A stretch of DNA of 64,000 nucleotides from Dehalococcoidia bacterium (GTDB lineage Bacteria; Chloroflexota; Dehalococcoidia; GIF9; AB-539-J10): the NCBI GenBank assembly GCA_030615625.1, contig JAUWYX010000002.1:82722-146721 (forward strand), written 5' to 3'. The position numbers were made by a program, and so were the translations under genes. Each line of letters begins with the position of its first letter. Position 1 is the stretch's first letter. Positions 3,581 to 64,000 of this stretch are shown here, one piece after another. A model generated the notes under the pieces. It did no database searches. It was not told the origin of the DNA and was given only the letters and a program-made list of their open reading frames with translations.

Positions 3581-4204
3581 TTAGTAACTGGTAAAAAAGA
3601 CCATCATTACGTAGATACCGAAGTGTATGATAAAACAAGGCAAAAACGACCTCGTTCTGTAAGCTACATAACCCAAAATGAAGCCGCCGGGGATGCAGGC
3701 CAGCGTCTCTAAAAAGGGCTTGCCCAGATGAAGCAACACAAAAGGAATGGCCTGCACAAAGATGGCACTTTTGCCTATCAACTTTTCCAGTCCAAACAGC
3801 ATATATCCACGGAACAGAAACTCCCAGGCAAACATGTATAGTGCGGTGTCGAGCAGCAGCTTGGACCAGTCTATGGCATCCCTGTGATAGTAAGAGTGAA
3901 ACTCGGGCATTTTACCGACCTCATAGAGAATCAGTGCCATGGCAGCAAGGCAGGCCGCGGTTAGAATTATCGACGCTTTCCAGCGGCCAATGCGGATGCC
4001 ATAATCCCAGGGCTTATCCCGAAAAAGCAGAAAGCCCGCCGCCAGCGGGACCAGCAGGTAATAAATGAGCTCCGTTGCCCGGGGAAAATCAATGTTTAAA
4101 GGATAGTAACGTTTCAGGACTAATACCAGCGTGGATATGCTGACCACCGCCAGAAGGTTCAGGTCATAGCCCCCTAACATCCTGTTTTTGATGTACTTTT
4201 GCAT
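3581..4204 (-). CDS. CPBP-family (CAAX) intramembrane metalloprotease
   Basis: Multi-TM protein with the signature motifs EFLFRG (EExxxR-like) and FVLLHLGK (HxxxN/H) of CPBP/Abi glutamic endopeptidases. Confidence 0.6.
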   Translation of the reverse strand: MQKYIKNRMLGGYDLNLLAVVSISTLVLVLKRYYPLNIDFPRATELIYYLLVPLAAGFLLFRDKPWDYGIRIGRWKASIILTAACLAAMALILYEVGKMPEFHSYYHRDAIDWSKLLLDTALYMFAWEFLFRGYMLFGLEKLIGKSAIFVQAIPFVLLHLGKPFLETLACIPGGFILGYVAYRTRSFLPCFIIHFGIYVMMVFFTSY

Positions 4205-4616: not shown

Positions 4617-6164
4617 ATGGCTTTAAAGAAATATTGCATTATTGCTCTTGTGGCAGTCATGGTGATGGTGTTGTCCGTGGGGAGCCCTATTGTCGTCGCC
4701 GAGTACTCACCTGAGTCCTCACCTGGGCTCCACACGGGTTGGATGATGGAGCTCGGTGGAGATAACATCACGTATAACCGCACGTATGAATACTATATCC
4801 CGACCGGTTACACCGGTTCAGAGGAGGTCCCCCTGTTGTTTTCGTTTCACGGCTTGGGCAGCAGCGGATTAGGCCAGATCACTCTAACCGAGTTTGATGT
4901 ACTTGCCGAACAAGAAGGGTTTATTGCCGTGTTTCCGAATGCCACAACATTAGATCCGGCGAGTTATCCCTCCTGCGCAGAGGGTTTGCCAGATCTCCCC
5001 GGTGCAGAAATCCAGTGGAATATGGGTGCACCAGGGTCATTGCAATACTGCGCAGGTATTGATGATGTGGGATTTGCTTCGGACATGGTTGACTGGTTTG
5101 AAAATAACTATAACATTGATGAAAGCCGGATCTACGCCACGGGGATGTCCAACGGCGCCATGTTTTCATACTTACTGGCCTTTAACCTGACGGGCACGTT
5201 TGCAGGCATCGCACCGGTTTGTTCACCAATGACGTTAAATCTGGGTGGGAGCACCACTCCGATAACCGTGATAGTGATGATGGGCACAGCCGACCCAATC
5301 GTTCCTTATGAGGGTTATGGTAGCCTAAATGTCACTTATTCTACCAATGAGACTATCGCTTACTGGCGTGGGGTCGACAATACAACCACCGGGCCGGTGG
5401 AAACTGTATGGGGGCCAACTGAGTCGGATTCGACCGTAGTTACCCGCTATGTTTACAGCGGAGGAACGGACGGGACCGAGGTGATATTGTTTAAGGTCGA
5501 TGGGGGCGGGCATACATGGCCCGGCGGGCCCGAGTATGCGCCCGAGTGGGTGATTGGCAAATTTTCCAATCATATCGACGGCAGTGCACAAATATGGAAG
5601 TATTTACCGCCGGAAAAATATTTCCTGACAATATACAGCACTAAAGGTGGCTCGGTAACCACTCCTGGCCGGGAGACATTCGCCAATATCGAGTTTGACG
5701 GAGCTACTATGTTCTTCTATCCCGGCACCGGTGACACCGTGGTCGACCTTGTGGCCACACCATTTAGTAGTAACTGGGAGTTCGTCAACTGGACCGGTGA
5801 CGTGAGTACCATCGCCGATGCCGATGCTGCCACAACCACTATCACTATCACCCCGGACAGAGACTATGAAATCACAGCCAATTTTCAGCTTGTGTCAGAA
5901 GAAGAGCCCGGGGGATGCTTCATAGCCACCGCAGCCTACGGAACTTCCACCGCTGAACAACTCGATGTGTTGCGAGAGTTCCGGGATGACGTGTTGCTGG
6001 AAAGCACCGTGGGCTCTCGACTTGTTGACCTCTACTACCAGGTCAGCCCCCCTATCGCAGACTTCATATCGGAACATAGCTTTGTGAGAACCCTGGTCAG
6101 GGAGCTCCTGATTGACCCCGTTGTTTGGTTAGTTGAAGCCACGGGAGATATATGGCGGAATTAA
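4617..6164 (+). CDS. Secreted alpha/beta-hydrolase (esterase/PHB-depolymerase-like) with one InlB-B-type repeat and a conserved C-terminal module
   Basis: N-terminal signal peptide. The hydrolase region has LLFSFHGLGSSG and a GMSNG nucleophile elbow (GxSxG). A ~75-aa repeat (VNWTGDVSTIADADAATTTITITPDRDYEITANF) follows. The C-terminus is GGCFIATAAYGTSTAEQLDVLREFRD...SPPIADFI, shared with two other proteins in the window. There is a strong RBS (AAAGGGAGGAGGG) upstream. Confidence 0.6.
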   Translation: MALKKYCIIALVAVMVMVLSVGSPIVVAEYSPESSPGLHTGWMMELGGDNITYNRTYEYYIPTGYTGSEEVPLLFSFHGLGSSGLGQITLTEFDVLAEQEGFIAVFPNATTLDPASYPSCAEGLPDLPGAEIQWNMGAPGSLQYCAGIDDVGFASDMVDWFENNYNIDESRIYATGMSNGAMFSYLLAFNLTGTFAGIAPVCSPMTLNLGGSTTPITVIVMMGTADPIVPYEGYGSLNVTYSTNETIAYWRGVDNTTTGPVETVWGPTESDSTVVTRYVYSGGTDGTEVILFKVDGGGHTWPGGPEYAPEWVIGKFSNHIDGSAQIWKYLPPEKYFLTIYSTKGGSVTTPGRETFANIEFDGATMFFYPGTGDTVVDLVATPFSSNWEFVNWTGDVSTIADADAATTTITITPDRDYEITANFQLVSEEEPGGCFIATAAYGTSTAEQLDVLREFRDDVLLESTVGSRLVDLYYQVSPPIADFISEHSFVRTLVRELLIDPVVWLVEATGDIWRN

Positions 6165-6316
6165 GGTGATGTAGAGTGTTGGGTTATACGGAGAAGCTTG
6201 CCCATTGGTACAAGGGTGAGACACCGACCCAGCAAAGGATATCATACCTGCCATGCCCAGAGCCGACCGTGTCTGGACACGGTCGGCTCTTTTATTACCA
6301 TTCTCTCCACACTCGA

Positions 6317-6341
6317 CAGCGCGGGGGGTGTGATATAATAA
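6317..6341 (+). promoter_or_regulatory. Putative promoter with extended -10 (GCGCGGGGGGTGTGATATAATA) upstream of the small secreted protein genes
   Basis: TGATATAAT fits TGnTATAAT. Nearly the same box (GCGCGGGGCGTGATATAATA) recurs at 44988-45007. Confidence 0.45.
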
Positions 6342-6433
6342 ATGCAAACCAAGATTTTGGGGAACTAAACTATTACAGGAGAAGGTAGTGGTTGAAGCCT
6401 CGTTGAGACAAATAATGACGAGGTGTTTTTAAA

Positions 6434-6973
6434 GTGAGTGGAAGTACTAGGAAGAAACTGCTAGCTAGCCTCTCTGCCCTTCTGGCAGCTATAATGATAT
6501 TTGCTACCTTTTGTGCTCCCCAGGAAGATAAAGTACAAGAGGCATTAAATCAAACCAAGATGCAAGCGCTATTCGGACAATTGCTTGCGTCCCAAAATAT
6601 TTCAATCGGATTTGGTAATACTGGGGGAGATTTAGCAAGGGTAAGCTACGCGGGTGGAAACTATACCATAACCATTCACAATAGTTACGCAGGCGCAAAC
6701 GTATCAGTAATCAAGGCGTTCCTTGCTCATGAACTCACCCATGTTAAGTGGGCAGTAAATGGCACCGGTGCCCTCGTCACTCATAACCTCACCTTCGCGG
6801 AGGAATACGATGCTTGGAAAACACAAACCGAGGTTTGGAGGGCACATAAAGGCGGCTTAACAGACGACCAGCTCGATCAAAAGGAGCAGCTTATATTCAC
6901 CAACGGGGGATACCGGAATAAGGACGAGGTGAAGACAACGCTGGAGTGGGTGGGCTATACGTTCGGCGACTAA
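6434..6973 (+). CDS. Small secreted/anchored protein with an HExxH motif (putative mini zinc-metallopeptidase-like); GTG start
   Basis: N-terminus MSGSTRKKLLASLSALLAAIMIFAT is a hydrophobic signal/anchor. AFLAHELTHVKW contains HExxH. The 5' ~110 bp, including the upstream leader, are ~95% identical to the next gene. Confidence 0.45.
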   Translation: MSGSTRKKLLASLSALLAAIMIFATFCAPQEDKVQEALNQTKMQALFGQLLASQNISIGFGNTGGDLARVSYAGGNYTITIHNSYAGANVSVIKAFLAHELTHVKWAVNGTGALVTHNLTFAEEYDAWKTQTEVWRAHKGGLTDDQLDQKEQLIFTNGGYRNKDEVKTTLEWVGYTFGD

Positions 6974-7015
6974 AGGCTCGCTGAGGCAAACAAATAATGT
7001 CGAGGTGTTTTTAAA

Positions 7016-7627
7016 GTGAGTGGAAGTACTAAGAAGAAACTGCTAGCTAGCCTCTCTGCCCTTCTGGCTGCTATAATGATATTCGCTACCTCTAGTGCTT
7101 CCCAGGAAGAAATGAACTACACGCAACATGAGGAGCCGGGTTTTGGAGTGACCTTCGAATACCCGCAAGGTTGGCGCCTGGTGAGGTGGGACCTCGAATC
7201 CCCTCCTTATGCGGGTGGTATATGCATATACACTGAGTACACCGGGGAGGACTTGAAGGAGCCGAGGGCCGTTGCCCTGATACTTTCGATAGTTCCTGCG
7301 GTGGAACAGGGAGGGAGTCTGACAACGGTGGATGAGTATGTTGACTATACAATCGTGCAGAGAAGCATCGGTACTACTATGGTTATCAGTGATAATAGCA
7401 CAACGATCGCAGGCCAGTCTGCAAGGGAGGTAAGCATCTCCTACGACCTTCTCCTCCCACCGAACGTTATAGACCCCACACTTGTAACTTGCATAACAAC
7501 CTGGGTGGTCTGCAAGAAAAATGGGTACTTTTATGACCTTCAATTCAGTGCCGGCGCAGCCGACTACGATGACTTCTTCGAAAAAGTTTACGAACATGCT
7601 AAAGAAACGATTAGCTTTGCATCGTAA
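7016..7627 (+). CDS. Small secreted/anchored protein, paralogous N-terminus to the upstream gene; PsbP/DUF1795-like fold suspected
   Basis: N-terminus MSGSTKKKLLASLSALLAAIMIFAT is almost identical to the 6434 gene. The mature part (FEYPQGWRLVRWDL...) is unrelated to its neighbour. Fold assignment is tentative. Confidence 0.45.
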   Translation: MSGSTKKKLLASLSALLAAIMIFATSSASQEEMNYTQHEEPGFGVTFEYPQGWRLVRWDLESPPYAGGICIYTEYTGEDLKEPRAVALILSIVPAVEQGGSLTTVDEYVDYTIVQRSIGTTMVISDNSTTIAGQSAREVSISYDLLLPPNVIDPTLVTCITTWVVCKKNGYFYDLQFSAGAADYDDFFEKVYEHAKETISFAS

Positions 7628-39290: not shown

Positions 39291-39581
39291 TAAGATAGGA
39301 TCTTGCAAAACCTAAGCTGTTAATTGTCCTATGTGCTGATCGGGGGTTGAGGAAAAAAGTGACAGAATGGTGGGGAAAAGAGATTACGGGGAGCGATGAG
39401 GCGGCGCCTTTAGGTGGTCACCTGGCCGCGGGTAGCTAACGATGAAACCGACCTTTTGAAGGTCGGTTTTGTGTTTTTAGAGAGGGTGATGCTTGTCGAA
39501 CTGAAAGTTGTGCGATAGAGAGGCCCCTAGGCCTCTGGTCGAGGGGCTATAAGTCAACATAAAAGCAATAAAGGGGGAGAA

Positions 39582-41786
39582 GTGAAAAAGATATTTAGTA
39601 TCCTTTTTGCCCTGGTGCTGGTGGTGAGTTTGGGGCTGGCGTCGACGGCGCCAGTTTTGGCAGATGTTATTGATGTGCCCGGTGACTACCCCACTATCCA
39701 GCAAGCCATTGATGCTGCCTCGGATGGTGACACCATCATGGTGGCGGCGGGTTTGTATGAAGAGAATGTTGAGATTGACAAGTCGTTGACCTTAAAGGGC
39801 GCCCAGGCCGGGGTTGATGCCCGCAACCGCAGTGGCGCTGAGACGATTATTGAACCAGATGAAGGAACAGGGATAAGAATAATTACCGCTGACGACCGAG
39901 ACATCGAGATTGATGGTTTGACGGTGCAGAACGCTGAGCATGGAATCGCGACTCCGGAACCTGAAATGGCCGCTGATATTACCGTCAAAAACGTACGCGT
40001 GTTAAACCCCAGTGAATTCGGGATTAGCCTCACCTTCACCCTGAGAGCAACGATTGAGTATTGCTATGTGGAAGGTGCGACACAAGCCATTAACGCGGGT
40101 GCCCTCGAGCCGTTTCCTCCGACTGTGGCGACCTTCAGGAACAACAAAGTCGTTAACTCGAGGTTTGGCATCACCGGGTACCTCGAAGAAGATTCGCTTA
40201 TCGAAGGCAACGAGGTGAGGGACTTCGTTGCTGGGGGCATAGGCATCAGTGGGTCGTTCCTTAACACCGAAATCAGGAATAACACAGTAACCGGCTATGT
40301 CGATGGCGCGGGCATGAGTTTCGAGGAGCACTACGGCCGCGACCTTTCTGAGAATGTGACTGTGGAAGGTAATACCTTCACAGAGAATAAGCTCGGTATC
40401 TATGTGTTTGATACGCAGACAACACTTACTGGAATCACCGTTAATTTCAACAACATCGCCGACAACTCTCGGTATGGTGTGTGGAACGAGGGAGGCGAGA
40501 CACTGGACGCCACCAAGAACTGGTGGGGCGCTGCCAGCGGACCCGGTAGAGTGGGACCGGGTGACGGCGATGGCGTCTCTACAAAGGTGTTTTACTCGCC
40601 GTGGCTGGGTGCCCAGGTCGGCACCGAGCCAATGACCTGGGGCGTGGACCCGACGAGTTCTATCCAGGACGCCATTGATGCGGCAGCCCATGGCGACACC
40701 ATCATAGCGGCGGAGGGGAAATACGAGGAGGACTTGAATATCGACAAGTCTCTGAACCTCCAGTCGGCAGGCGGGATTGAAGTGACTACTATTACCGGCT
40801 CTGTCAGTATAGAACTGGACGCTGAGATAGTCTTCATTGGTGGAGATGACGCTGGGTTCACCATCGATGCTGATGGTGGTGACTTCGCCTTATGGTTTTC
40901 CATCAACAATGAAAGCGAGGTCTCCATCAGTCACAATGTACTCGCTGGTGCTGTAGATGGCATAACCACCCGGAGCGGCCTGCTGGACAACAGCACCGTC
41001 ACCATCGGGGATAACCAAATCCACGAAAATGACTACGGAATCTACCTGGAATCCGTTGCCGGCGACAGCACCGTGCTCATCAACTCTAACCGCCTCGCTG
41101 GAAACGACGGTTACGGGCTCTACGTCGAAGACAGCGCCGTTATCGTTGACGCCACCTCCAACTGGTGGGGCGATGCCAGCGGACCCAGTGGTGGCGTGAC
41201 CGATCCTGTTACCGGAAAGATTGCGGATGGCACCGGAGATGCTGTTTCGGAACATGTCCACTTTGACCCCTGGCTGCTGACTTATCAATATGCCCTCACA
41301 ATCTCCAGCACCGGTGGGGGTTCAGTAGTCGTCCCTGGCGAGGGGATTTTTACCTATGAGCCTGGAACGGTGGTTGACCTGATAGCGATTACAGACACTT
41401 TCTATAACTTCTACGCGTGGACTGGAGATGTGGGCAACATCGCTAATGTCAACGGCGCAGCAACCAACATCACTATGAACGACAACTATTCTATAACAGC
41501 CAACTTCAATTTTGGGCCGTTTGGGTGGTGCTTCATCGCTACCGCAGCCTACGGTACCGATACAGCAAAGGAGTTAGCCATCCTGAGAGAGTTCAGGGAC
41601 GAGGTCCTGCTGCCTAACAGCTTGGGTGTTATGCTTGTATCTCTCTACTATAAAACCAGCCCTTTCATAGCCAACTTTATCTCCCAACACGAGGTCCTGA
41701 GAACAGCGGTGAGAGTGGGCTTCGTTGACCCAATTGTGAAAATATTAACTTGGACTCAGGGTTTATGGTTGGCGGGAGGCTCATGA
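39582..41786 (+). CDS. Secreted right-handed beta-helix (pectate-lyase/NosD-like) protein with two beta-helix modules, one InlB-B-type repeat and the conserved C-terminal module
   Basis: Signal peptide MKKIFSILFALVLVVSLGLA. There are two modules beginning PGDYPTIQQAIDAASDGDTIMVAAGLYEE and SSIQDAIDAAAHGDTIIAAEGKYEE. Each ends with the NWWG-ASGP...F-PWL motif. The InlB-B-type repeat is ...VVDLIAITDTFYNFYAWTGDV...ITANF. The C-terminus is WCFIATAAYGTDTAKELAILREFRD...SPFIANFI. GTG start with a GGGGGAGAAG RBS. Confidence 0.6.
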   Translation: MKKIFSILFALVLVVSLGLASTAPVLADVIDVPGDYPTIQQAIDAASDGDTIMVAAGLYEENVEIDKSLTLKGAQAGVDARNRSGAETIIEPDEGTGIRIITADDRDIEIDGLTVQNAEHGIATPEPEMAADITVKNVRVLNPSEFGISLTFTLRATIEYCYVEGATQAINAGALEPFPPTVATFRNNKVVNSRFGITGYLEEDSLIEGNEVRDFVAGGIGISGSFLNTEIRNNTVTGYVDGAGMSFEEHYGRDLSENVTVEGNTFTENKLGIYVFDTQTTLTGITVNFNNIADNSRYGVWNEGGETLDATKNWWGAASGPGRVGPGDGDGVSTKVFYSPWLGAQVGTEPMTWGVDPTSSIQDAIDAAAHGDTIIAAEGKYEEDLNIDKSLNLQSAGGIEVTTITGSVSIELDAEIVFIGGDDAGFTIDADGGDFALWFSINNESEVSISHNVLAGAVDGITTRSGLLDNSTVTIGDNQIHENDYGIYLESVAGDSTVLINSNRLAGNDGYGLYVEDSAVIVDATSNWWGDASGPSGGVTDPVTGKIADGTGDAVSEHVHFDPWLLTYQYALTISSTGGGSVVVPGEGIFTYEPGTVVDLIAITDTFYNFYAWTGDVGNIANVNGAATNITMNDNYSITANFNFGPFGWCFIATAAYGTDTAKELAILREFRDEVLLPNSLGVMLVSLYYKTSPFIANFISQHEVLRTAVRVGFVDPIVKILTWTQGLWLAGGS

Positions 41787-41866
41787 ACGTAACAGCAATC
41801 CCGGGCACTAAGTAAACCCTAGGGGGAGCCATTGTAGTTGAGGCAAGCCCGACAAAACTTCGAAAA

Positions 41867-41903
41867 ACCGCTTGACGGTATAGAGGATGTGATATAATAA
41901 TTC
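41867..41903 (+). promoter_or_regulatory. Putative sigma-70-type promoter (CTTGAC -35, 18-nt spacer, extended -10 TGATATAAT) of the second beta-helix gene
   Basis: AAAACTTCGAAAAACCGCTTGACGGTATAGAGGATGTGATATAATAA, with the same architecture as the element 1 promoter module. Confidence 0.5.
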
Positions 41904-42010
41904 AGAAAATTGTAACATGCATTTAATTAACAGGATTTTAACACAAATAGTTTATTATACTGTAAGCCGAAGATTTTGGGGAAAGTGAACTGTTACGAAG
42001 GAGGTGAAGA

Positions 42011-43630
42011 ATGAAAAGGATATTTAGTATCCTGTTTGCCCTGGTGCTGGTGGTGAGCCTGGGGCTAGTGATGGCGACGCCGGTTTCGGCAGGCAACATT
42101 ATTCATGTGCCCGATGACTACGAAACTATCCAAGAAGCCATTGATGCGGCAGGCTCTGGCGACACCATCACAGTGGCGGCGGGGACATGCGCCGCCTTCC
42201 AGGTGCAGGGAAAGACAAATATAAGCATAATCAGCGCTGAGGGGGCAACCGTTACTACCGCAAACTGTTTTACGGTTGACATCGGGCCAATAGTAGGGGA
42301 CGTATGGGTCATGGCTGCGGTGAATGCGTCAGAAAACATCAATATTGAGGGTATTAACTTTGATGGAACCGAGCTCAGCGAAGAAGAAAATGTTTGCGGC
42401 ATCGCCTACCTTGACAGCACAGGGAGACTTGCTGACCTGACGATGGCAAACATTATCGGCACCGAATGGTATTTGGGGGGGGTGGCTATCATAGGTGATG
42501 TCGGCACCTCTGTGGTGAACCTCTCAGGCGTCACCGTCGAGAACTCAGGTGCGGGTGTCGCCATATTGAATGCTGAGACCAATCTTGACGGCTGTACCAT
42601 TACAGAGAATTGGCTAGCAGGTATCCTAATAGGTTGGCCGCTTGACGGGTTCGATCCGTCCACTGCAGAGGTGAAAGGGTCCACAATCTCTAACAACTAC
42701 GGTACAGGCATAGCTGTTTTCGATGATTCTACCCTGGAAGCTCACTTCAACAACATCGTCGGCAACACTGATTTTGGTTTGTGGAACGATGGAGGTGGGA
42801 CGGTGGACGCCACCTACAACTGGTGGGGCGATGCCAGCGGACCATACCACCCCATAGCTAACCCTGGCGGTGAGGGCAATCCCGTCAGCGATGATATGAA
42901 TTTCGAGCCCTGGCTGGAGGCTGAGGCGGTAACAGAGACGGTAACCGATGGCACCGTTGATGCCACGGACGAGGCTGACACCGAGGTTGAGGTAGACGGC
43001 ACAGCTACGGTAACCGTGGCTCCGTATGACGATAATCCCGGCGGGTCCGCTCCAACCGGCTTCAGCTCACAGGATAAATATATCGATGTCTACGTTCCCG
43101 ATACTACGGAAGTCACCGAGCTTGAGATAAGGCTTTACTATACCGATGCTGAAGTAGAGGCGGCAGACGTCGACGAAGAATCGCTACGGCTCTTCTGGTG
43201 GAACGACACTGCCTGGGTGCAGTGCTCAGACGGCGGAGTCAATACCGCCAGCACCAATGGCTACAGCGGTTATATGTGGGCAAAAATAAGAAATAATACC
43301 ACGCCGTCTCTGGCCGACTTGCAGGGGACGGAATTTGGTGGTTATGGCCATCCGTCGGAAACTCCGGGAGGTTGTTTTATCGCTACCACAGCCTACGGTA
43401 CCGATACAGCCAAGGAACTAGACATCCTGAGAGAGTTCAGGGACGAGGTTCTGCTGCCCAACAGCCTAGGCGCCGAGTTTGTATCTCTCTATTATAAAAC
43501 CAGTCCGCCCATAGCCAACTTTATCTCCCAACACGAGGTTCTAAGAACAGCGGTGAGGGTGTGCTTTATTGACCCGATTGTGAAAGTATTAAATTGGAGC
43601 CACGATTTATGGTCGGCGAGAGGCTCATGA
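42011..43630 (+). CDS. Secreted beta-helix protein, paralogue of 39582..41786 with a divergent central region and the same C-terminal module
   Basis: The signal peptide and first ~55 codons are ~85% nucleotide-identical to the upstream paralogue. It has the NWWGDASGP motif, an acidic Thr/Glu/Asp-rich linker, and the C-terminal GGCFIATTAYGTDTAKELDILREFRD...SPPIANFI. The last ~260 bp plus the 3' flank are ~90% identical to 41535-41830. Confidence 0.6.
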   Translation: MKRIFSILFALVLVVSLGLVMATPVSAGNIIHVPDDYETIQEAIDAAGSGDTITVAAGTCAAFQVQGKTNISIISAEGATVTTANCFTVDIGPIVGDVWVMAAVNASENINIEGINFDGTELSEEENVCGIAYLDSTGRLADLTMANIIGTEWYLGGVAIIGDVGTSVVNLSGVTVENSGAGVAILNAETNLDGCTITENWLAGILIGWPLDGFDPSTAEVKGSTISNNYGTGIAVFDDSTLEAHFNNIVGNTDFGLWNDGGGTVDATYNWWGDASGPYHPIANPGGEGNPVSDDMNFEPWLEAEAVTETVTDGTVDATDEADTEVEVDGTATVTVAPYDDNPGGSAPTGFSSQDKYIDVYVPDTTEVTELEIRLYYTDAEVEAADVDEESLRLFWWNDTAWVQCSDGGVNTASTNGYSGYMWAKIRNNTTPSLADLQGTEFGGYGHPSETPGGCFIATTAYGTDTAKELDILREFRDEVLLPNSLGAEFVSLYYKTSPPIANFISQHEVLRTAVRVCFIDPIVKVLNWSHDLWSARGS

Positions 43631-46680: not shown

Positions 46681-46749
46681 CCGATATAAATCTTGATAAG
46701 CTGGGCGTTAGTATGTCATTCCTAGCCAACTTATAAATATTATGTCAAT

Positions 46750-46927
46750 CAGATCAGAACTGCAAATCCCCCGTGGTTTGGCTCTGCCGATGGTTTCGCA
46801 AAATCAAACTATCCTTACCGGGTCGACATCTATAGTCCAGCCCCGCGGCAAAGTGAGCCGGGATAACATCCGAGTTGAGTCAGGGCCGCGGAGGAAGAGT
46901 TGCCAGCGATACCGGCCCCTGGCCCTG
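46750..46927. repeat. Element 2 copy (degenerate duplicate of the priA 3' end plus downstream sequence)
   Basis: CAGAACTGCAAATCCCCCGTGGTTTGGCTCTGCCGATGGTTTCGCAAAATCAAAC...GGGTCGACATCTATAGTCCAGCCCCGCGGCAAAGTGAGCCGGGATAACATCCGAGTTGAGTCAGGGCCGCGGAGGAAGAGTTGCCAGCGATACC matches 58006-58200 and, from AATCAAACC onward, the native priA 3' end at 61609-61740. Confidence 0.65.
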
Positions 46928-56409: not shown

Positions 56410-57993
56410 ATGAAGATAATACTTAGCTCGAGGAGACGCCACTACGTGAAAAGACTTGGCATCTTTTTGATTACGGTAGCCTTAATTGTGGGAATAGCAG
56501 GCTGTGAGGGTAGTTGTAGTTCTACTCCTGTTCAATACGATCTCACCACCTCCAGTACTGCAGGCGGCGACGTAGTTATCTCCGGTGAGGGAACTTATGC
56601 CGATGGAGCAATAGTCACCATGGAGGCCGTGGCGGATGAGTGTTACGAGTTCGTCAACTGGACCGGCGCAGACGTCGCCGACCCCTACTCTCCCATAACC
56701 ACCATCACTATGGATGAAGCTAAGAGTATAACCGCCAATTTTGCCCTGCTGAGCTACGACCTTACAGCAGACAGCACAGATGGTGGCGAGGTAACCACTC
56801 CTGGCGAGGGGACTTTTACCTATGACTGCGGCACGGTGGTTGACCTGGTGGCGACTCCAGATGCTTACTACGGGTTTGTCGAGTGGACCGGCGATGTGGA
56901 CACCATCGCCGATGTTTATGCTGCCTCAACCGCCATCACCATGAACGGCGACTATTCTATCACCGCTAACTTCATCCTGTTCGCCGGAGGGAACGGAACA
57001 GCCGAGAATCCCTATCAGATTGCGGATTGGTACCACCTTGATAATGTCCGCAATTATCTAAGCAGCTACTTTATCGTCATAAACGACCTCGATTCCAACT
57101 CTATTGGCTATACAGAGCTGGCGAGTGAGACAAGCCACGAAGGAAAAGGCTGGGAGCCAATTGGAAGTATTGCTGTAAATGACGCATTCGTCGGCAGCTT
57201 CGACGGTCAGGGGTACGAGATATGCGACCTGTTTATCGACCGCCCTGACGAATCTGATGTGGGGCTCTTCGGTGTTGTTGAAGAATTAGGGGTCATCGAG
57301 AATGTCGGCGTAGTAGTAAACGGCAATGTGACTGGCCAAGACGATGTTGGCGTTCTGGTGGGAAAGAATGAGGGCACTGTAAGCAACTCCTGTTCCACCG
57401 GCAATGTGACTGGCAACCTCAATGTTGGCGGTCTGGTGGGATGGAATTTTAAGGGCACTGTCACCGACACCTATTCCACCGGCAATGTAACTGGCCTAGA
57501 CAATGTTGGCGGTCTGGTGGGATGGAATACGGGCACTATGAGCAACTCCTATTCCACGGGCGGCGTGACTGGCAATACGAGTGTTGGCGGTCTGACCGGA
57601 AAGAATGGCGGCACTGCGAGCAACTCCTATGCCACCGGCAGCGTGACTGGTGATGATAATGTCGGTGGTCTGGTGGGAAAGAATGACAACACTGGCACTG
57701 TTAGCAACTCCTATTCCACTGGCAGTGTGACTGGCAATACGCATGTTGGCGGTCTGATGGGAAGGAATCAGGGCACTGAGAGCAACTCCTTCTGGGACAC
57801 CGAGACCAGCGGACAAGCTACTTCAGATGGAGGGGACGGCAAGACCACCGCGGAAATGCAGGACATCACCACCTTCTCAGGAGCAGGCTGGGACATAATC
57901 ACAGTCGCCAATCCTGGCACGCGCAACCCTTCCTACATCTGGAATATCGTTAACACTGTGACTTATCCATTCCTGAGCTGGCAGCCTGTTTAA
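56410..57993 (+). CDS. Lipoprotein with two InlB-B-type repeats and tandem GLUG-motif repeats
   Basis: Lipobox LIVGIAGC. Two ~80-aa repeats (FVNWTGADV...ITANF and FVEWTGDV...ITANF). It also has at least six GLUG-type repeats (VGGLVGxNxGTxSNSYSTGxVTG). Confidence 0.65.
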   Translation: MKIILSSRRRHYVKRLGIFLITVALIVGIAGCEGSCSSTPVQYDLTTSSTAGGDVVISGEGTYADGAIVTMEAVADECYEFVNWTGADVADPYSPITTITMDEAKSITANFALLSYDLTADSTDGGEVTTPGEGTFTYDCGTVVDLVATPDAYYGFVEWTGDVDTIADVYAASTAITMNGDYSITANFILFAGGNGTAENPYQIADWYHLDNVRNYLSSYFIVINDLDSNSIGYTELASETSHEGKGWEPIGSIAVNDAFVGSFDGQGYEICDLFIDRPDESDVGLFGVVEELGVIENVGVVVNGNVTGQDDVGVLVGKNEGTVSNSCSTGNVTGNLNVGGLVGWNFKGTVTDTYSTGNVTGLDNVGGLVGWNTGTMSNSYSTGGVTGNTSVGGLTGKNGGTASNSYATGSVTGDDNVGGLVGKNDNTGTVSNSYSTGSVTGNTHVGGLMGRNQGTESNSFWDTETSGQATSDGGDGKTTAEMQDITTFSGAGWDIITVANPGTRNPSYIWNIVNTVTYPFLSWQPV

Positions 57994-58005
57994 TACAACT
58001 AGCAC

Positions 58006-58342
58006 TCAGACCAGAACTGCAAATTCCCCGTGGTTGGGCTCTGCCGATGGTTTCGCAAAATCAAACCATACCCACCGGGTCGACATCTATAGTCCAGCCC
58101 CGCGGCAAAGTGAGCCGGGATAACATCCGAGTTGGGCTAGGACCACGGAGGAAGAGTTGCCAGCGATACCTGCCCCTGGCTCTGAAGGCAAAAGTAGGCA
58201 CAGGACCAATTACATTGAAATCAATCATGTCCTTTCTTGCCTTTTCATCAAGAATTAGACGATACACCCTCTCTGCCTCACGGCGACATAACTCTTCATT
58301 GGTGTGGCTATAAACCAGGCGGACTAACTGGCTAAAAGGGGG
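58006..58342 (-). pseudogene. Element 2 copy: duplicated 3' fragment of priA (last ~94 codons) plus downstream sequence
   Basis: The reverse strand encodes PPFSQLVRLVYSHTNEELCRREAERVYRLILDEKARKDMIDFNVIGPVPTFAFRARGRYRWQLFLRGPSPTRMLSRLTLPRGWTIDVDPVGMV*. This is ~90% identical to the native PriA C-terminus at 61611-61892. The ORF 58061..58267 is part of it. Confidence 0.7.
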
Positions 58343-61001: not shown

Positions 61002-61610
61002 TTTCCATCACTCTCCTTTCCTTTTGTAATAGTTCGCCCTGAAACGTAGTTTAGCCTCTCTGAAATCTCAGTCCATAGTACATCACCCCCTCGCTGTCAA
61101 GCCTCCATCACCAGTCATCACCCCAACCAGCACAGGCACGAGCGTAATCCCAAAGATTCTGGCTGTCACCTGCCTTCTTCCCATTGTCGTACATCCCTTG
61201 CTCATTGTTTTACATTTATCCTCCTCCCTCGACAGAGCTTCAGCGTGAGCTCAGTCGCACGCCCCGGACAGGTTCTTATCCTTCTTCCCTCAAGCGGAAG
61301 GGGATTGCTTGGGCTATGCCTGGCATGGCCTGGGATTTCGAATGGGAGGATAGATTTTGCCGTGGCTGGGAAAAAAGAGCCGAGACTACATGTCTATATG
61401 CGCTCAACTGAATCTGATGAGGACTAAAGTAACCCCTGACACACACTCTTGACCCCCACTTTTGTATTATTTTATAGTACCACCATCAACAGAAATTTGT
61501 CAACAGGTCTTAACCATGTGGATAAGTAGAAAGCAGCCATATACTCGGCAATAAGAAGAACAAAATGGGAAAGCCCAATATTGATTATCCCCTGAGAAAT
61601 GTCTGTAGAA

Positions 61611-64000
61611 TCAAACCATCCCTACGGGGTCGACATCTATAGTCCAGCCCCGCGGCAAAGTGAACCGGGATAACATCCGGGTTGAGTCAGGGCCACGGAG
61701 GAAGAGTTGCCAGCGATACCTGCCCCTGGCCCTGAAGGCAAAAGCGGGCACAGGACCAATTACATTGAAATCAATCATGTCCTCTCTTGCCCTTTCATCA
61801 AGAATTAGACGATGCACCCTCTCTGCCTCACAGCGACATAGCTCCTCATTGGTGTGGCTATAAACCAGGCGGACTAACTGGCTAAAAGGGGGATAATTGT
61901 ATCGGCGGCGATAATCTATTTCTTTATAATAAAAACCAAGATAATCATGCCTGGCAGCAGCTTCAATAATGTAGTTATCGGGGGAGTAAGTCTGGATGAT
62001 GACCTTCCCCGCTTTAACCCCACGCCCCGCCCTGCCAGCTACCTGACACAGGAGTTGAAAAGTGCGCTCGCTACTTCGGAAATCAGGAAAATTAAGGCCG
62101 GTATCGGCACTGATTATCCCGGCCAGGGTCACTTGAGGCAGATCTAATCCTTTGGCTATCATCTGGGTGCCAATAAGCACATCTGCCTTGTGGTCACGAA
62201 AATTCTTTAACAACTCCTCATGAGCATATCTCCTGGTAATCACATCTCTGTCCCAGCGAAGCAATCTTGCTTCAGGGAAGAAATGCCTTATCTCTTCTTC
62301 TACCCTCTGCGTGCCAATGCCCAGAAACCTCAGATAACGCCGAGAACACCGGGGGCAGCTTTGGGGTGCTGGAACAGAATAACGACAGCGATGGCAAATT
62401 AGCCTTTTCTCCGCTGAATGGTAAGTAAGGGCTATGGAGCAGCGGGGGCAGCGAAAGACAAAGCCACAGTTACGACATCGAACAAAGGTAGCTGTGCCCC
62501 GACGGTTAAGGAAAAGAATTATCTGCTCGCCCTGCGCCAAAGTTTCTTTCATGGCAGCTAACAAGGAACGGCTAAACAAGCTTGTGTTTCCGGCTTTAAG
62601 TTCTTCCCTCAAATCCACTATGCTTACTTCGGGGAGAGGGGAATAACCACGAGGAGTAATTCTTTCCTTTAGCTCTACAAGATAATATTCGCCTTGCTGT
62701 GCCTTATGGAAACTGCCAATATCAGGGGTAGCACTGCCCAGGATGACAACAGCATCGCTGAGTTGAGCCAATTCAATGGCCACGTCGCGGGCATGATAGC
62801 GAGGTGACTTATCTTCTTGTTTGTATGTCCATTCATGCTCTTCATCGATAATGATAAGACCGAGGTTGGCCAGGGGCGCAAATAATGCGCTCCTCGGTCC
62901 GATGACGACGTCGCAGTTTCCCTCCACTATCCATTGCCACTCGTCGAACTGTTCTCCCAAGGAAAGGCCACTATGCAGTACTGCCACACGCCCGGGGAAG
63001 CGATCAGCAAATCTCTCTACTGTTTGTTGGGTCAAAGCGATTTCAGGGATAAGACAAATGCCTCGCTTACCGGCGGCAATAACCTGAGCTAATGCCCGCA
63101 GGTAAATCTCAGTCTTTCCGCTGCCAGTAACGCCAAAAAGGAGAAAAACCGGTGGACTGCTAGATTGCCTTGCTTCCTTCACAATGACATCTTGGATCGA
63201 TTCCCAAGCAGTTTGTTGAGATGAGGTGAGAATCGGAGCTGGAGAAGTTGTGAGGCTGAGGTGAGATAAGGGGTCACGTCTTACCCTGAGCCTTTCCACT
63301 GAGACCAAATGGCGGCTCTCCAGGGCTTTGATAGTGGCAAGAGAGCTATTGAGACGTTTCCTCAGTTCGCTAATTGAAATAGGTTGAGTCTGCCCGGTCA
63401 GAAATTCTAATAGTTCTGCCTGTTTATAAGCTCTAGACTTATCCAGGCGAGCTTTCTCCGCTTCAATTTCTTCTCTGTCAGCTATTAACTTAATATAAGG
63501 AAGCGTTTTGGGCTTTATCTTTGCCTTTTCCAATTCCAGAGTTTTTGCAATTAGCTGACGGTCTAGCAACTGGTCGGTAATTTGCTTGGCTTTTCTTTTG
63601 CCAATTGCTTTCTCCAGCTCAGCCAAGCTTGTCTTCCCCTCCCTTCTCATAATGTGCAGGATTTGCCTTTGCTCGGGTGTCAGGGGCAAATCTACTTGGG
63701 AATCTGTTAGCTGAAAGCAAGTAATAGCCCGTCTCTCAAATCCCGGAGGCAGCATTAAAGCCAGGGCATCGAAAAGGGGGGCAAAATAGTGTTCGCTTAT
63801 CCACTGGGCAAGCTTTATTTGTATCGGGGAAAGCAAAGGAAAATCAGTAACAATGCCAGCTATTTCCTTAGTTTCTTCAACCGATGGCTCGTCTGATAAT
63901 CGGAGCACAATCCCCTGAATAACCCTGGAGCCAAAGGGCACCCATACTGCTTGCCCGGCACTAATATTGAGCCCTGGCGGTATGGCATAGCAAAAAGTTG
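61611..64000 (-). CDS. priA: Primosomal protein N' (PriA helicase); N-terminus extends beyond the window end
   Basis: VPFGSRVIQGIV N-terminal motif, Walker A GVTGSGKTE, DEAH-like DEEHE, and Cys4 zinc-binding CRNCGFVFRCPRCS...CHRCRY. The frame remains open upstream of 63941 (...AIPPGLNISAGQAVWVPFGSR) to the window edge. Its 3' ~285 bp form the native copy of element 2. Confidence 0.9.
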   Translation of the reverse strand, partial: TFCYAIPPGLNISAGQAVWVPFGSRVIQGIVLRLSDEPSVEETKEIAGIVTDFPLLSPIQIKLAQWISEHYFAPLFDALALMLPPGFERRAITCFQLTDSQVDLPLTPEQRQILHIMRREGKTSLAELEKAIGKRKAKQITDQLLDRQLIAKTLELEKAKIKPKTLPYIKLIADREEIEAEKARLDKSRAYKQAELLEFLTGQTQPISISELRKRLNSSLATIKALESRHLVSVERLRVRRDPLSHLSLTTSPAPILTSSQQTAWESIQDVIVKEARQSSSPPVFLLFGVTGSGKTEIYLRALAQVIAAGKRGICLIPEIALTQQTVERFADRFPGRVAVLHSGLSLGEQFDEWQWIVEGNCDVVIGPRSALFAPLANLGLIIIDEEHEWTYKQEDKSPRYHARDVAIELAQLSDAVVILGSATPDIGSFHKAQQGEYYLVELKERITPRGYSPLPEVSIVDLREELKAGNTSLFSRSLLAAMKETLAQGEQIILFLNRRGTATFVRCRNCGFVFRCPRCSIALTYHSAEKRLICHRCRYSVPAPQSCPRCSRRYLRFLGIGTQRVEEEIRHFFPEARLLRWDRDVITRRYAHEELLKNFRDHKADVLIGTQMIAKGLDLPQVTLAGIISADTGLNFPDFRSSERTFQLLCQVAGRAGRGVKAGKVIIQTYSPDNYIIEAAARHDYLGFYYKEIDYRRRYNYPPFSQLVRLVYSHTNEELCRCEAERVHRLILDERAREDMIDFNVIGPVPAFAFRARGRYRWQLFLRGPDSTRMLSRFTLPRGWTIDVDPVGMV

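Follow-up and report, generated by a model that had tools for sequence, protein, structure and literature searches.

A 64-kb stretch of a Dehalococcoidia contig (JAUWYX010000002.1), hereinafter the window, carries two adjacent genes, A and B, that encode predicted small exported proteins with nearly the same N-terminal leader and with unrelated mature domains, a putative zinc metallopeptidase and a Mog1/PsbP-fold protein, respectively. A preliminary description of this locus placed both open reading frames (ORFs) correctly, with GTG starts and with 5' regions that are almost identical and diverge thereafter, and its account of the N-termini MSGST(R/K)KKLLASLSALLAAIMIFAT, of the HExxH block AFLAHELTHVKW and of the acidic EEYDAW is accurate. 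The label of 'tandem paralogues' that it attached to the genes is inappropriate because the mature domains are unrelated, and the leader alone is held in common. The main features of the locus, with the Shine-Dalgarno sequence abbreviated SD and related loci and proteins designated by L and P numbers, respectively, are as follows:

6434..6973, + strand: gene A, encoding a 179-amino acid exported putative gluzincin-type metallopeptidase, DUF6782-like and minigluzincin-like, with the mature domain from about residue 33
6728..6742, + strand: HELTH of A (H99, E100, H103), a motif with putative roles in zinc binding and catalysis that does not vary among 27 homologues
6800..6805, + strand: E123-E124 of A; E124 is invariant and a putative third zinc ligand, located 21 residues past H103 in the helix predicted to follow
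7016..7627, + strand: gene B, encoding a 203-amino acid Mog1/PsbP-fold protein with an N-terminal signal peptide
6393..6528, + strand: copied block in A, comprising B-type intergenic sequence, SD GAGGTG (6420-6425), GTG (6434), codons 1-32 and the signal peptide MSGSTRKKLLASLSALLAAIMIFATFCAPQED
6971..7110, + strand: source block, comprising the A stop codon, the 42-nt A-B intergenic region, SD GAGGTG (7002-7007), GTG (7016) and B codons 1-32
6377..6394, + strand: relic of the ancestral start of A, with SD AGGAGAAGG (6377-6385) and the ancestral ATG, now TTG (6392-6394)
7112..7114, + strand: ATG of B Met33, invariant in the orthologues and preceded by purine-rich AGGAAGAA (GAGGAAGAA in L001; window 7101-7114)

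The repeat search delimits a direct repeat of 121 nt (family D10; 6408-6528 versus 6990-7110) at 94% identity, and when one 4-nt indel is allowed, the homology between A and B spans ~136 nt (~6393-6528 versus 6971-7110), from ~40 nt upstream of the start codons, through the ribosome-binding site (RBS) and the GTG, to codon 32, beyond which the genes are unrelated. There are exactly two copies of the 30-mer GAGGTGTTTTTAAAGTGAGTGGAAGTACTA in the window, at 6420 and 7002, compared with 0 expected from 100 shuffles. Each of the two GTG starts is the first start codon past an in-frame stop and lies 8 nt after the GAGGTG SD.

The direction of the copying can be gleaned from the related loci. The 5' regions of A and B are 89-94% identical in the window, compared with ~50%, the alignment background, in eight related loci, and L122 likewise has no leader copy. 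The two window leaders are each other's nearest relatives, with 6 differences in 93 positions as opposed to 10-11 in 93 to the orthologous B leaders, so that the copy is younger than the divergence from the relatives sampled. In five related lineages, A carries a signal peptide of its own, MKRM(L/F)RYGLVGL..., of the signal peptidase (SPase) I type, and the MSGxTKKKLL...ATSC leader is present on B only. Because the orthologues of A keep their own signal peptide and B alone has the leader, it is the leader of B that was copied onto A. The leader duplication is thus a recent B-to-A recombination that is limited to the window lineage.

Both junctions of the copied block can be located. The region upstream of A in the window is collinear with that of the A orthologues (L001, L003, L015) as far as, and including, the old SD AGGAGAAGG. 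The 5' junction lies within a TGAA(G) microhomology, and the sequence after it is B-type, opening with the counterpart of A's own stop-codon region and the A-B spacer. At the 3' junction, GAAGA/TAAAGTACAAGAGG (6528/6529; GAAGA/TAAAG), the A sequence resumes exactly before the conserved KVQEALNQ. The copy replaced the SD, the start codon and the signal peptide of A by those of B, and an illegitimate, microhomology-type recombination, confined to the window lineage, would have transferred these ~136 nt from B to A. The preliminary description singled out the duplication of an export leader onto unrelated domains; this holds for the window but not as a property of the system because the event is a one-off, and the A leader of the relatives is different. 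The locus provides a natural signal-peptide swap between adjacent genes, with the breakpoints mapped and the direction supported by outgroups, which is of interest with regard to export signals moving as cassettes. The Vlp proteins of Mycoplasma form a lipoprotein gene family with common 5' leader and signal-peptide cassettes, and A and B are similar to these in having a near-identical 5' untranslated region and signal peptide on unrelated mature domains; a weak match to VlpA_Nterm was also obtained. Unlike Vlp, the sharing here comes from one recent copy between adjacent genes of one operon in one lineage, and there are two copies in the window, with no multigene variation.

The leader itself is under notable constraint on the B side: the 30 nt upstream of the B GTG (6986-7015) show no differences (0/30) among the window, L001 and L003 despite a synonymous divergence (dS) of ~0.2 in the flanking genes. 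A conserved RNA structure in the B leader was considered and rejected given minimum free energy z-scores of 0.0 to 0.4 in three lineages. In the A copy (window 6397-6424), two substitutions form an 8-bp hairpin (GCCUCGUU...GACGAGGU) that would occlude the new SD of A; this hairpin is found in the A copy only and not in the B copies, and is not significant (z=-1.76).

A second pair of genes with a common RBS and signal-peptide region (39574-39663 and 42003-42092; 82% over 90 nt) is present in the window. The members of this pair (39667-42843) also have downstream repeats in common (families D8, D11 and D13) and so look like true paralogues, unlike A and B.

The export signals of the two genes differ in type in the relatives. 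The N-terminus of A there is MK(R/K)M(L/F)RYGLVGLAIALVAMLAISPVTTLG/DYPP (VTA/QEYPP in L015), a signal peptide of classical n-h-c layout whose -3/-1 site is small, and hence of the SPase I type, and the N-terminus of B is MSGxTKKKLL..LSALLAAIMIFATSC, ending in the lipobox-like ATSC (GTAC in P0010). The ancestral leader reads ACC TCT TGT GCT CC (T-S-C-A-P) at this point, whereas the window copies read TTT TGT (F-C) in A and TCT AGT ... TCC (S-S..S) in B. When scanned with the lipobox pattern [LVI/A][ASTVI][GAS]-Cys, the ancestral leader qualifies but window A (ATFC, with a bulky Phe at -1) and window B (ATSS, with a Cys to Ser replacement) do not. Judging by this pattern, both window leaders have drifted from the canonical lipobox since the copying, and the predicted export fates of A and B in the window are not identical. 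The leader swap would shift the predicted export of A from released to possibly membrane-retained.

The assignment of A to metallopeptidases derives from its relatives. H99, E100, H103 and E124 are invariant across 27 sequences with 24-66% identity, so the HExxH motif, which the preliminary description allowed might be fortuitous, is a genuine family feature; L122 also has HExxH (HELIH), and all six family-invariant residues are kept in window A. The predicted secondary structure of A consists of three strands, the HExxH helix and the Glu helix. The latter (residues 121-138) includes E124, which aligns to the EEE of projannalysin and would accordingly be a candidate zinc ligand. The A4 family profile matches projannalysin (4qhf) with E=7.5e-6 (29.5 bits) and proabylysin (4jiu) with E=0.036, and M48 peptidases weakly, and the narrow A2 profile, at the level of the window protein, reaches only E=0.25 against the minigluzincins. 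DUF6782 (PF20573; gathering threshold 27 bits) is matched by 17 of the 27 relatives of A; scores among relatives range over 18-34 bits, and only some pass the threshold (30.2 for P0013, 28.4 for P0015, 32.9 for P0022 and 34 for the L035 homologue). Because these matches come from the relatives and not from window A, the link is transitive and holds at the superfamily level. Weak matches to Tox-MPTase4 (PF15640; gathering threshold 25 bits) were produced by P0012 (19.9 bits) and P0014 (18 bits) only. Further candidates were discarded: the sole NCBIfam match of window A, to ScyA (E=0.047), is noise, and P0019 and P0030, retrieved in the representative search, are repeat-protein false positives.

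The family is sparse. There are four close homologues of A (P0002-P0004 with 61-66% identity, P0011 with 44%) and five of B, and the close relatives of the pair come from only ~6 lineages among 5.8 billion clustered proteins. A scan of species-representative genome contigs, a set that does not include the window's own genome, yielded no relatives of A. No mention of DUF6782 was found in the literature searched, and the family is uncharacterized.

Taken together, these similarities are best explained if A is a gluzincin-type zinc metallopeptidase, presumably catalytic, of an uncharacterized DUF6782-like group with a distant relationship to the minigluzincins. The latter are archaeal proteins of the cytoplasm in which the C-terminal tail acts as an inhibitor of the enzyme itself. 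In the literature, they are regarded as the smallest soluble version of the scaffold on which the catalytic domains of M48/M56 metallopeptidases are built. Like A, the minigluzincins (projannalysin MJ1213, PDB 4qhf-4qhj, and proabylysin 4jiu) are small, single-domain proteins, and the beta-strands, the HExxH helix and the downstream acidic helix align, the similarity being at the profile level only. Unlike them, A shows very low identity to these proteins and has an extra C-terminal region of ~50 residues with the invariant W135 and Y175, a signal peptide and a paired PsbP-fold gene.

For B, the preliminary description made a weak call of a PsbP/DUF1795-type domain, and this is borne out. The predicted structure (predicted local distance difference test score of 78, predicted template modeling score of 0.73) superposes on members of the PsbP, Mog1 or DUF1795 group and points to a Mog1/PsbP fold, and 13 of the 21 members of the wider B family match Pfam PsbP (PF01789) at E<=0.1, the best of them with 8.7e-6; window B itself scores 12.8-13.6 bits, under the gathering threshold of 23.5. 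The likeness of B to LpqN (6e5d), DcrB (6e8a), Tsi3 (4luq), TplEi (5h7y) and cyanobacterial PsbP (2xb3) is one of fold, with 8-15% identity. Tsi3 and TplEi neutralize a muramidase and a phospholipase, respectively, whereas the partner of B is a putative metallopeptidase; a zincin inhibitor with a PsbP fold was not encountered. The Met33 codon of B corresponds to the start codon of the B homologues that have no signal peptide (L015 and the remote loci). In L015 (2700-2790), the B leader has decayed into an (EEEQ)x3 repeat and a remnant ..ILIFATSCAPEEEQEEEQEEEQE that runs into a stop codon, and Met33 serves as the start of B. The signal peptide of B therefore looks like an N-terminal extension that was added before an older start at Met33, and dual initiation of B is conceivable.

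The partnership of the two genes extends far beyond the window clade. A and B are adjacent in every related contig, with a 42-nt spacer in L001-L008. When searched with hidden Markov models of both families, a B-like ORF directly downstream of the A-like gene, on the same strand, was detected in every close relative and, where at least 600 nt of downstream sequence is available in the remote metagenome loci, in 15 of 17, the remaining loci being cut by contig ends; thus, the co-occurrence of the pair, one of the points left for checking in the preliminary description, is a general one. The two remote exceptions are the weakest A matches. Window B is recognizably similar to remote downstream ORFs (BLASTP E=3e-11 and 3e-6). 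To judge from these homologies, the A-to-B adjacency is ancient and deeply conserved.

The remote A-like proteins have hydrophilic helical N-terminal regions of 100-240 residues in place of signal peptides, and the remote B-like proteins start at the domain, without a signal peptide. The peptidase domain is the sole part of A that is common to the window clade and the remote relatives. Hence, the partnership that B has kept concerns the peptidase domain rather than trafficking, which favors a binder or inhibitor (immunity) role for B over that of a secretion adaptor.

Many of the remote loci have features of a T7SS (type VII secretion system), namely WXG100 or FtsK-SpoIIIE neighbors (L009, L021, L027, L028, L030, L031 and L035). 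Among the 24 remote loci with sufficient room, 9 have a WXG100 gene directly upstream of the A-like gene; two of these WXG100 copies were scanned against Pfam and score 31 and 34.6 bits (gathering threshold 27.3). FtsK/SpoIIIE ATPases of EssC size adjoin the A-like genes in L009, L030, L031 and L035, and in P0016 and P0034, WXG100 is fused to the peptidase. The remote N-terminal domains gave no match to Pfam LXG.

Several additional arrangements were observed in the remote loci. In L037 (4988-6139), a second WXG100 gene is followed by the gene for a 275-amino acid protein with an N-terminus like that of the A-like effectors and a different, unannotated C-terminus; in this single example, the protein may be an alternative cargo in the style of polymorphic toxins. 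There is also a second class of shorter A-like proteins, without WXG100, some of them encoded next to HerA/FtsK-like ATPases: in L013 (16-1476) and L020 (1504-5735), short-form A-like/B-like pairs lie downstream of HerA/DUF87/FtsK-like ATPases and may belong to a delivery or defense context other than T7SS. In L040 (221-1435), a divergent A-like protein has an N-terminus like that of type IV pilins or pseudopilins (..KKKVSAFTLTEVLVAVAIAG..) before the peptidase domain, and here too a B-like ORF comes next, a weak and truncated one whose N-terminus is hydrophobic.

These contexts resemble known conflict systems. In polymorphic toxin systems, small zincin domains are deployed as toxins delivered via T7SS, the type VI secretion system or Sec, and PsbP/MOG1 proteins are found as neighbors of toxin genes (Zhang et al. 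2012, PMC3482391). The cassette organization typical of such systems, an effector gene followed by a small gene on the same strand and kept in divergent members, is found here. The remote relatives of A are similar to DUF6782 (the 'putative metallopeptidase family') and Tox-MPTase proteins in their WXG100 fusions or neighbors, the EssC-like ATPase and the small gene directly downstream. Window A is dissimilar in that it has a Sec signal peptide instead of a T7SS or RHS trafficking domain and scores with neither family. Among the T7SS LXG/WXG100 toxin-immunity systems of monoderms is TelC-TipC (PMC6193138), in which the immunity protein acts outside the membrane. The remote relatives share with such T7SS cassettes the WXG100 gene, a helical N-terminus combined with a C-terminal enzyme, the small downstream gene and a nearby FtsK/SpoIIIE ATPase, and the window-clade B is, like TipC, predicted to be extracytoplasmic. 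Unlike the T7SS cassettes, the window pair has neither a T7SS signal nor T7SS neighbors and is Sec-dependent.

The two genes evolve at markedly different rates. The ratio of nonsynonymous to synonymous substitution rates (omega) of mature A is 1.12 (confidence interval 0.65-2.2) against L001 and 1.32 (0.75-2.85) against L003, compared with 0.32 (0.16-0.63) and 0.22 (0.11-0.45), respectively, for B, which is indicative of purifying selection; the bootstrap intervals of A and B do not overlap. Within A, the catalytic block (residues 86-126) is almost invariant, with omega of ~0.5-0.6 versus ~1.2-1.6 elsewhere. The rates in A fit an effector with a diversifying surface and yet leave room for relaxed constraint.

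The interpretation that appears to account best for these observations, with a probability of roughly 0.55, is that the locus is a Sec-exported derivative of a module that consists of a metallopeptidase effector and its cognate inhibitor or immunity protein. The module would descend from cassettes in which the peptidase was the C-terminal cargo of WXG100/FtsK-SpoIIIE (T7SS)-associated proteins, and a B homologue without a signal peptide was encoded directly downstream of the peptidase gene. In the Dehalococcoidia clade, a Sec signal peptide would have replaced the trafficking domain of A, and B would have gained a lipoprotein signal upstream of Met33; with both proteins having gained export signals, the partner would have followed the enzyme to the extracytoplasmic side. 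The ancestral arrangement in this clade would have combined a released enzyme, with an SPase I signal, and a membrane-tethered lipoprotein partner, much as secreted toxins are matched by immunity proteins at the surface in TelC-TipC (PMC6193138). Most likely, B would bind the peptidase domain of A and neutralize it at the outer face of the membrane of the producer. The toxin role of A, the inhibitor role of B, the binding between the two proteins and their localization are all parts of this scenario that we infer. The preliminary description offered a secreted protease with a cognate binder or inhibitor as one possible reading; the protease-inhibitor part is now the best-supported one, whereas the common export signal is not an ancestral feature of the pair and does not give the two proteins an identical predicted export fate. 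If the scenario is valid, an effector/partner module changed its secretion route yet kept the partnership, which argues that the partner acts on the catalytic domain. The locus would also give the DUF6782-like putative metallopeptidase family, which is widespread in the WXG100/EssC loci of uncultured bacteria, its first functional hypothesis together with a defined partner, and add a candidate example in which a PsbP-fold protein targets a zincin. The locus would represent a known type of effector-plus-partner cassette, here switched to Sec export with a signal-peptide swap, and is not categorically new.

Several observations weigh against this interpretation. Window A has no Pfam match at E<=1, DUF6782 and Tox-MPTase4 included. 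No WXG100-like ORF was found in the 64-kb window, so that the window pair does not qualify as a T7SS substrate, and even among the remote loci, those with an upstream WXG100 gene are a minority. L038 and L039 encode divergent exported A-like proteins with no detectable B downstream. In L015, A keeps its signal peptide and the B leader is lost, which would place the two proteins in different compartments, and in the window, both lipoboxes are non-canonical, so that the predicted localization of A and B is uncertain. The combination of a slowly evolving B with a fast evolving A is not the expected one, given that classical arms-race toxin/immunity pairs usually diversify on both sides.

A bolder version of the effector scenario would hold that the DUF6782-like proteins are an undescribed family of antibacterial metallopeptidase effectors with PsbP-fold immunity proteins that switches from T7SS to Sec, that B, through the retained start at Met33 and its purine-rich SD, is perhaps made in both an exported and a cytoplasmic form, and that the leader swap of the window lineage turns a released toxin into one tethered to the membrane. 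In this extended form, the proposal is doubtful.

Among the alternatives, the one that deserves most attention, although it is unlikely, is that B is a chaperone, adaptor or cofactor of A, similar to the Eag/DUF1795 proteins or to PsbP-type scaffolds, and assists folding, docking or substrate finding at the cell surface. PsbP-fold neighbors of toxins need not be immunity proteins and can instead have a chaperone or adaptor role (Eag/DUF1795), which also counts against the effector-inhibitor interpretation. Conversely, the B-like genes are always located downstream of the A-like gene, the usual position of immunity genes, and the remote A-like proteins have no hydrophobic helices that would call for Eag-type shielding and so depart from the Eag/DUF1795 pattern. 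The pairing outlived the complete replacement of the trafficking region of A, which ties B to the peptidase domain, and Tsi3 and TplEi, which are bona fide immunity proteins, have the same fold.

It is also improbable that the pair is involved in envelope maintenance, with A as a surface or secreted processing protease and B as its substrate, regulator or anchor lipoprotein, outside any conflict between bacteria, the T7SS-linked relatives then being a separate use of the same domain. Such a role would be compatible with the conserved chromosomal neighborhood of housekeeping genes (HGSNAT-like acyltransferase, Rce1-like protease, PolX and valyl-tRNA synthetase (ValRS)), with a GC content of the pair that is the same as that of the surroundings, with the absence of T7SS genes from the window, with the involvement of many Mog1/PsbP-fold lipoproteins (LpqN, DcrB) in envelope biogenesis and with the existence of exported A-like proteins without B (L038, L039). 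An omega of ~1.2-1.6 outside the core of A would, however, be unusual in a housekeeping enzyme, the family is extremely sparse (~6 close lineages), and the nearest relatives of the module are the effector-like cassettes.

The possibility that A is decaying or non-functional in the window lineage, with the leader swap and the near-neutral omega reflecting relaxed constraint and HExxH being a leftover, has little to recommend it. The omega values of mature A against L001 and L003, the Phe at -1 of the copied lipobox and the potential SD-occluding hairpin in the A copy would all be in line with decay, but the ORF is intact, residues 86-126 are almost invariant and the six family-invariant residues are in place. 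Moreover, omega is also high (0.76) between L001 and L003, which have kept the original leader, so that fast evolution characterizes the family rather than the window lineage. Finally, an assembly artefact, a chimeric join or a collapsed repeat in what is evidently a contig of a metagenome-assembled genome (MAG) with the exact protein recorded once, on a 254-kb NCBI contig, is exceedingly improbable because the two copies differ at 7 positions and by the 4-nt indel, both are flanked by sequence collinear with the orthologous loci, the frames are kept across both junctions, and a misassembly would not yield an in-frame fusion with a relic SD upstream.

The surroundings of the pair are those of a chromosomal locus with largely conserved gene order. 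A strong intrinsic-terminator-like hairpin of 14 bp followed by a T-run (6259..6290, + strand) ends the upstream esterase gene and bounds the A-B transcription unit on its 5' side. Upstream of the pair are genes for an HGSNAT-like acyltransferase, for an intramembrane protease similar to Rce1 and for a PHB-depolymerase-like esterase whose C-terminal domain is a CFI box, and downstream are PolX and ValRS, the latter 63-68% identical to the ValRS of Dehalococcoidia/Dehalococcoidales MAGs. There is no signal of horizontal transfer in the GC content (0.48 for A and 0.49 for B, compared with 0.49 for the window), and no further copies of the leader, the A/B module or WXG100 genes were found elsewhere in the 64-kb window.

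The esterase gene (4617-6164) encodes a secreted protein of 515 amino acids with an InlB B-repeat domain and CFI-box-CTERM (NF041770, 91 bits) and sits between the Rce1-like gene and gene A. In L001, an equivalent gene lies directly upstream of A, and the contig stops short of an Rce1-like gene; L003-L006 lack the esterase gene, which makes it a variable insertion beside the A/B pair. The Rce1-like/CPBP intramembrane protease gene (3581-4204, - strand; PF02517, E=1.5e-13) is syntenic upstream of the pair in L003-L006; members of this family are linked to bacteriocin self-immunity. Elsewhere in the window, there is a tandem array of five ~81-nt units (D1; 57321-57768) as well as dispersed repeats of 180-300 nt (D2 and D5; 46746-46927, 58003-58342 and 61553-61892), all of which are probably parts of large repetitive surface-protein genes.

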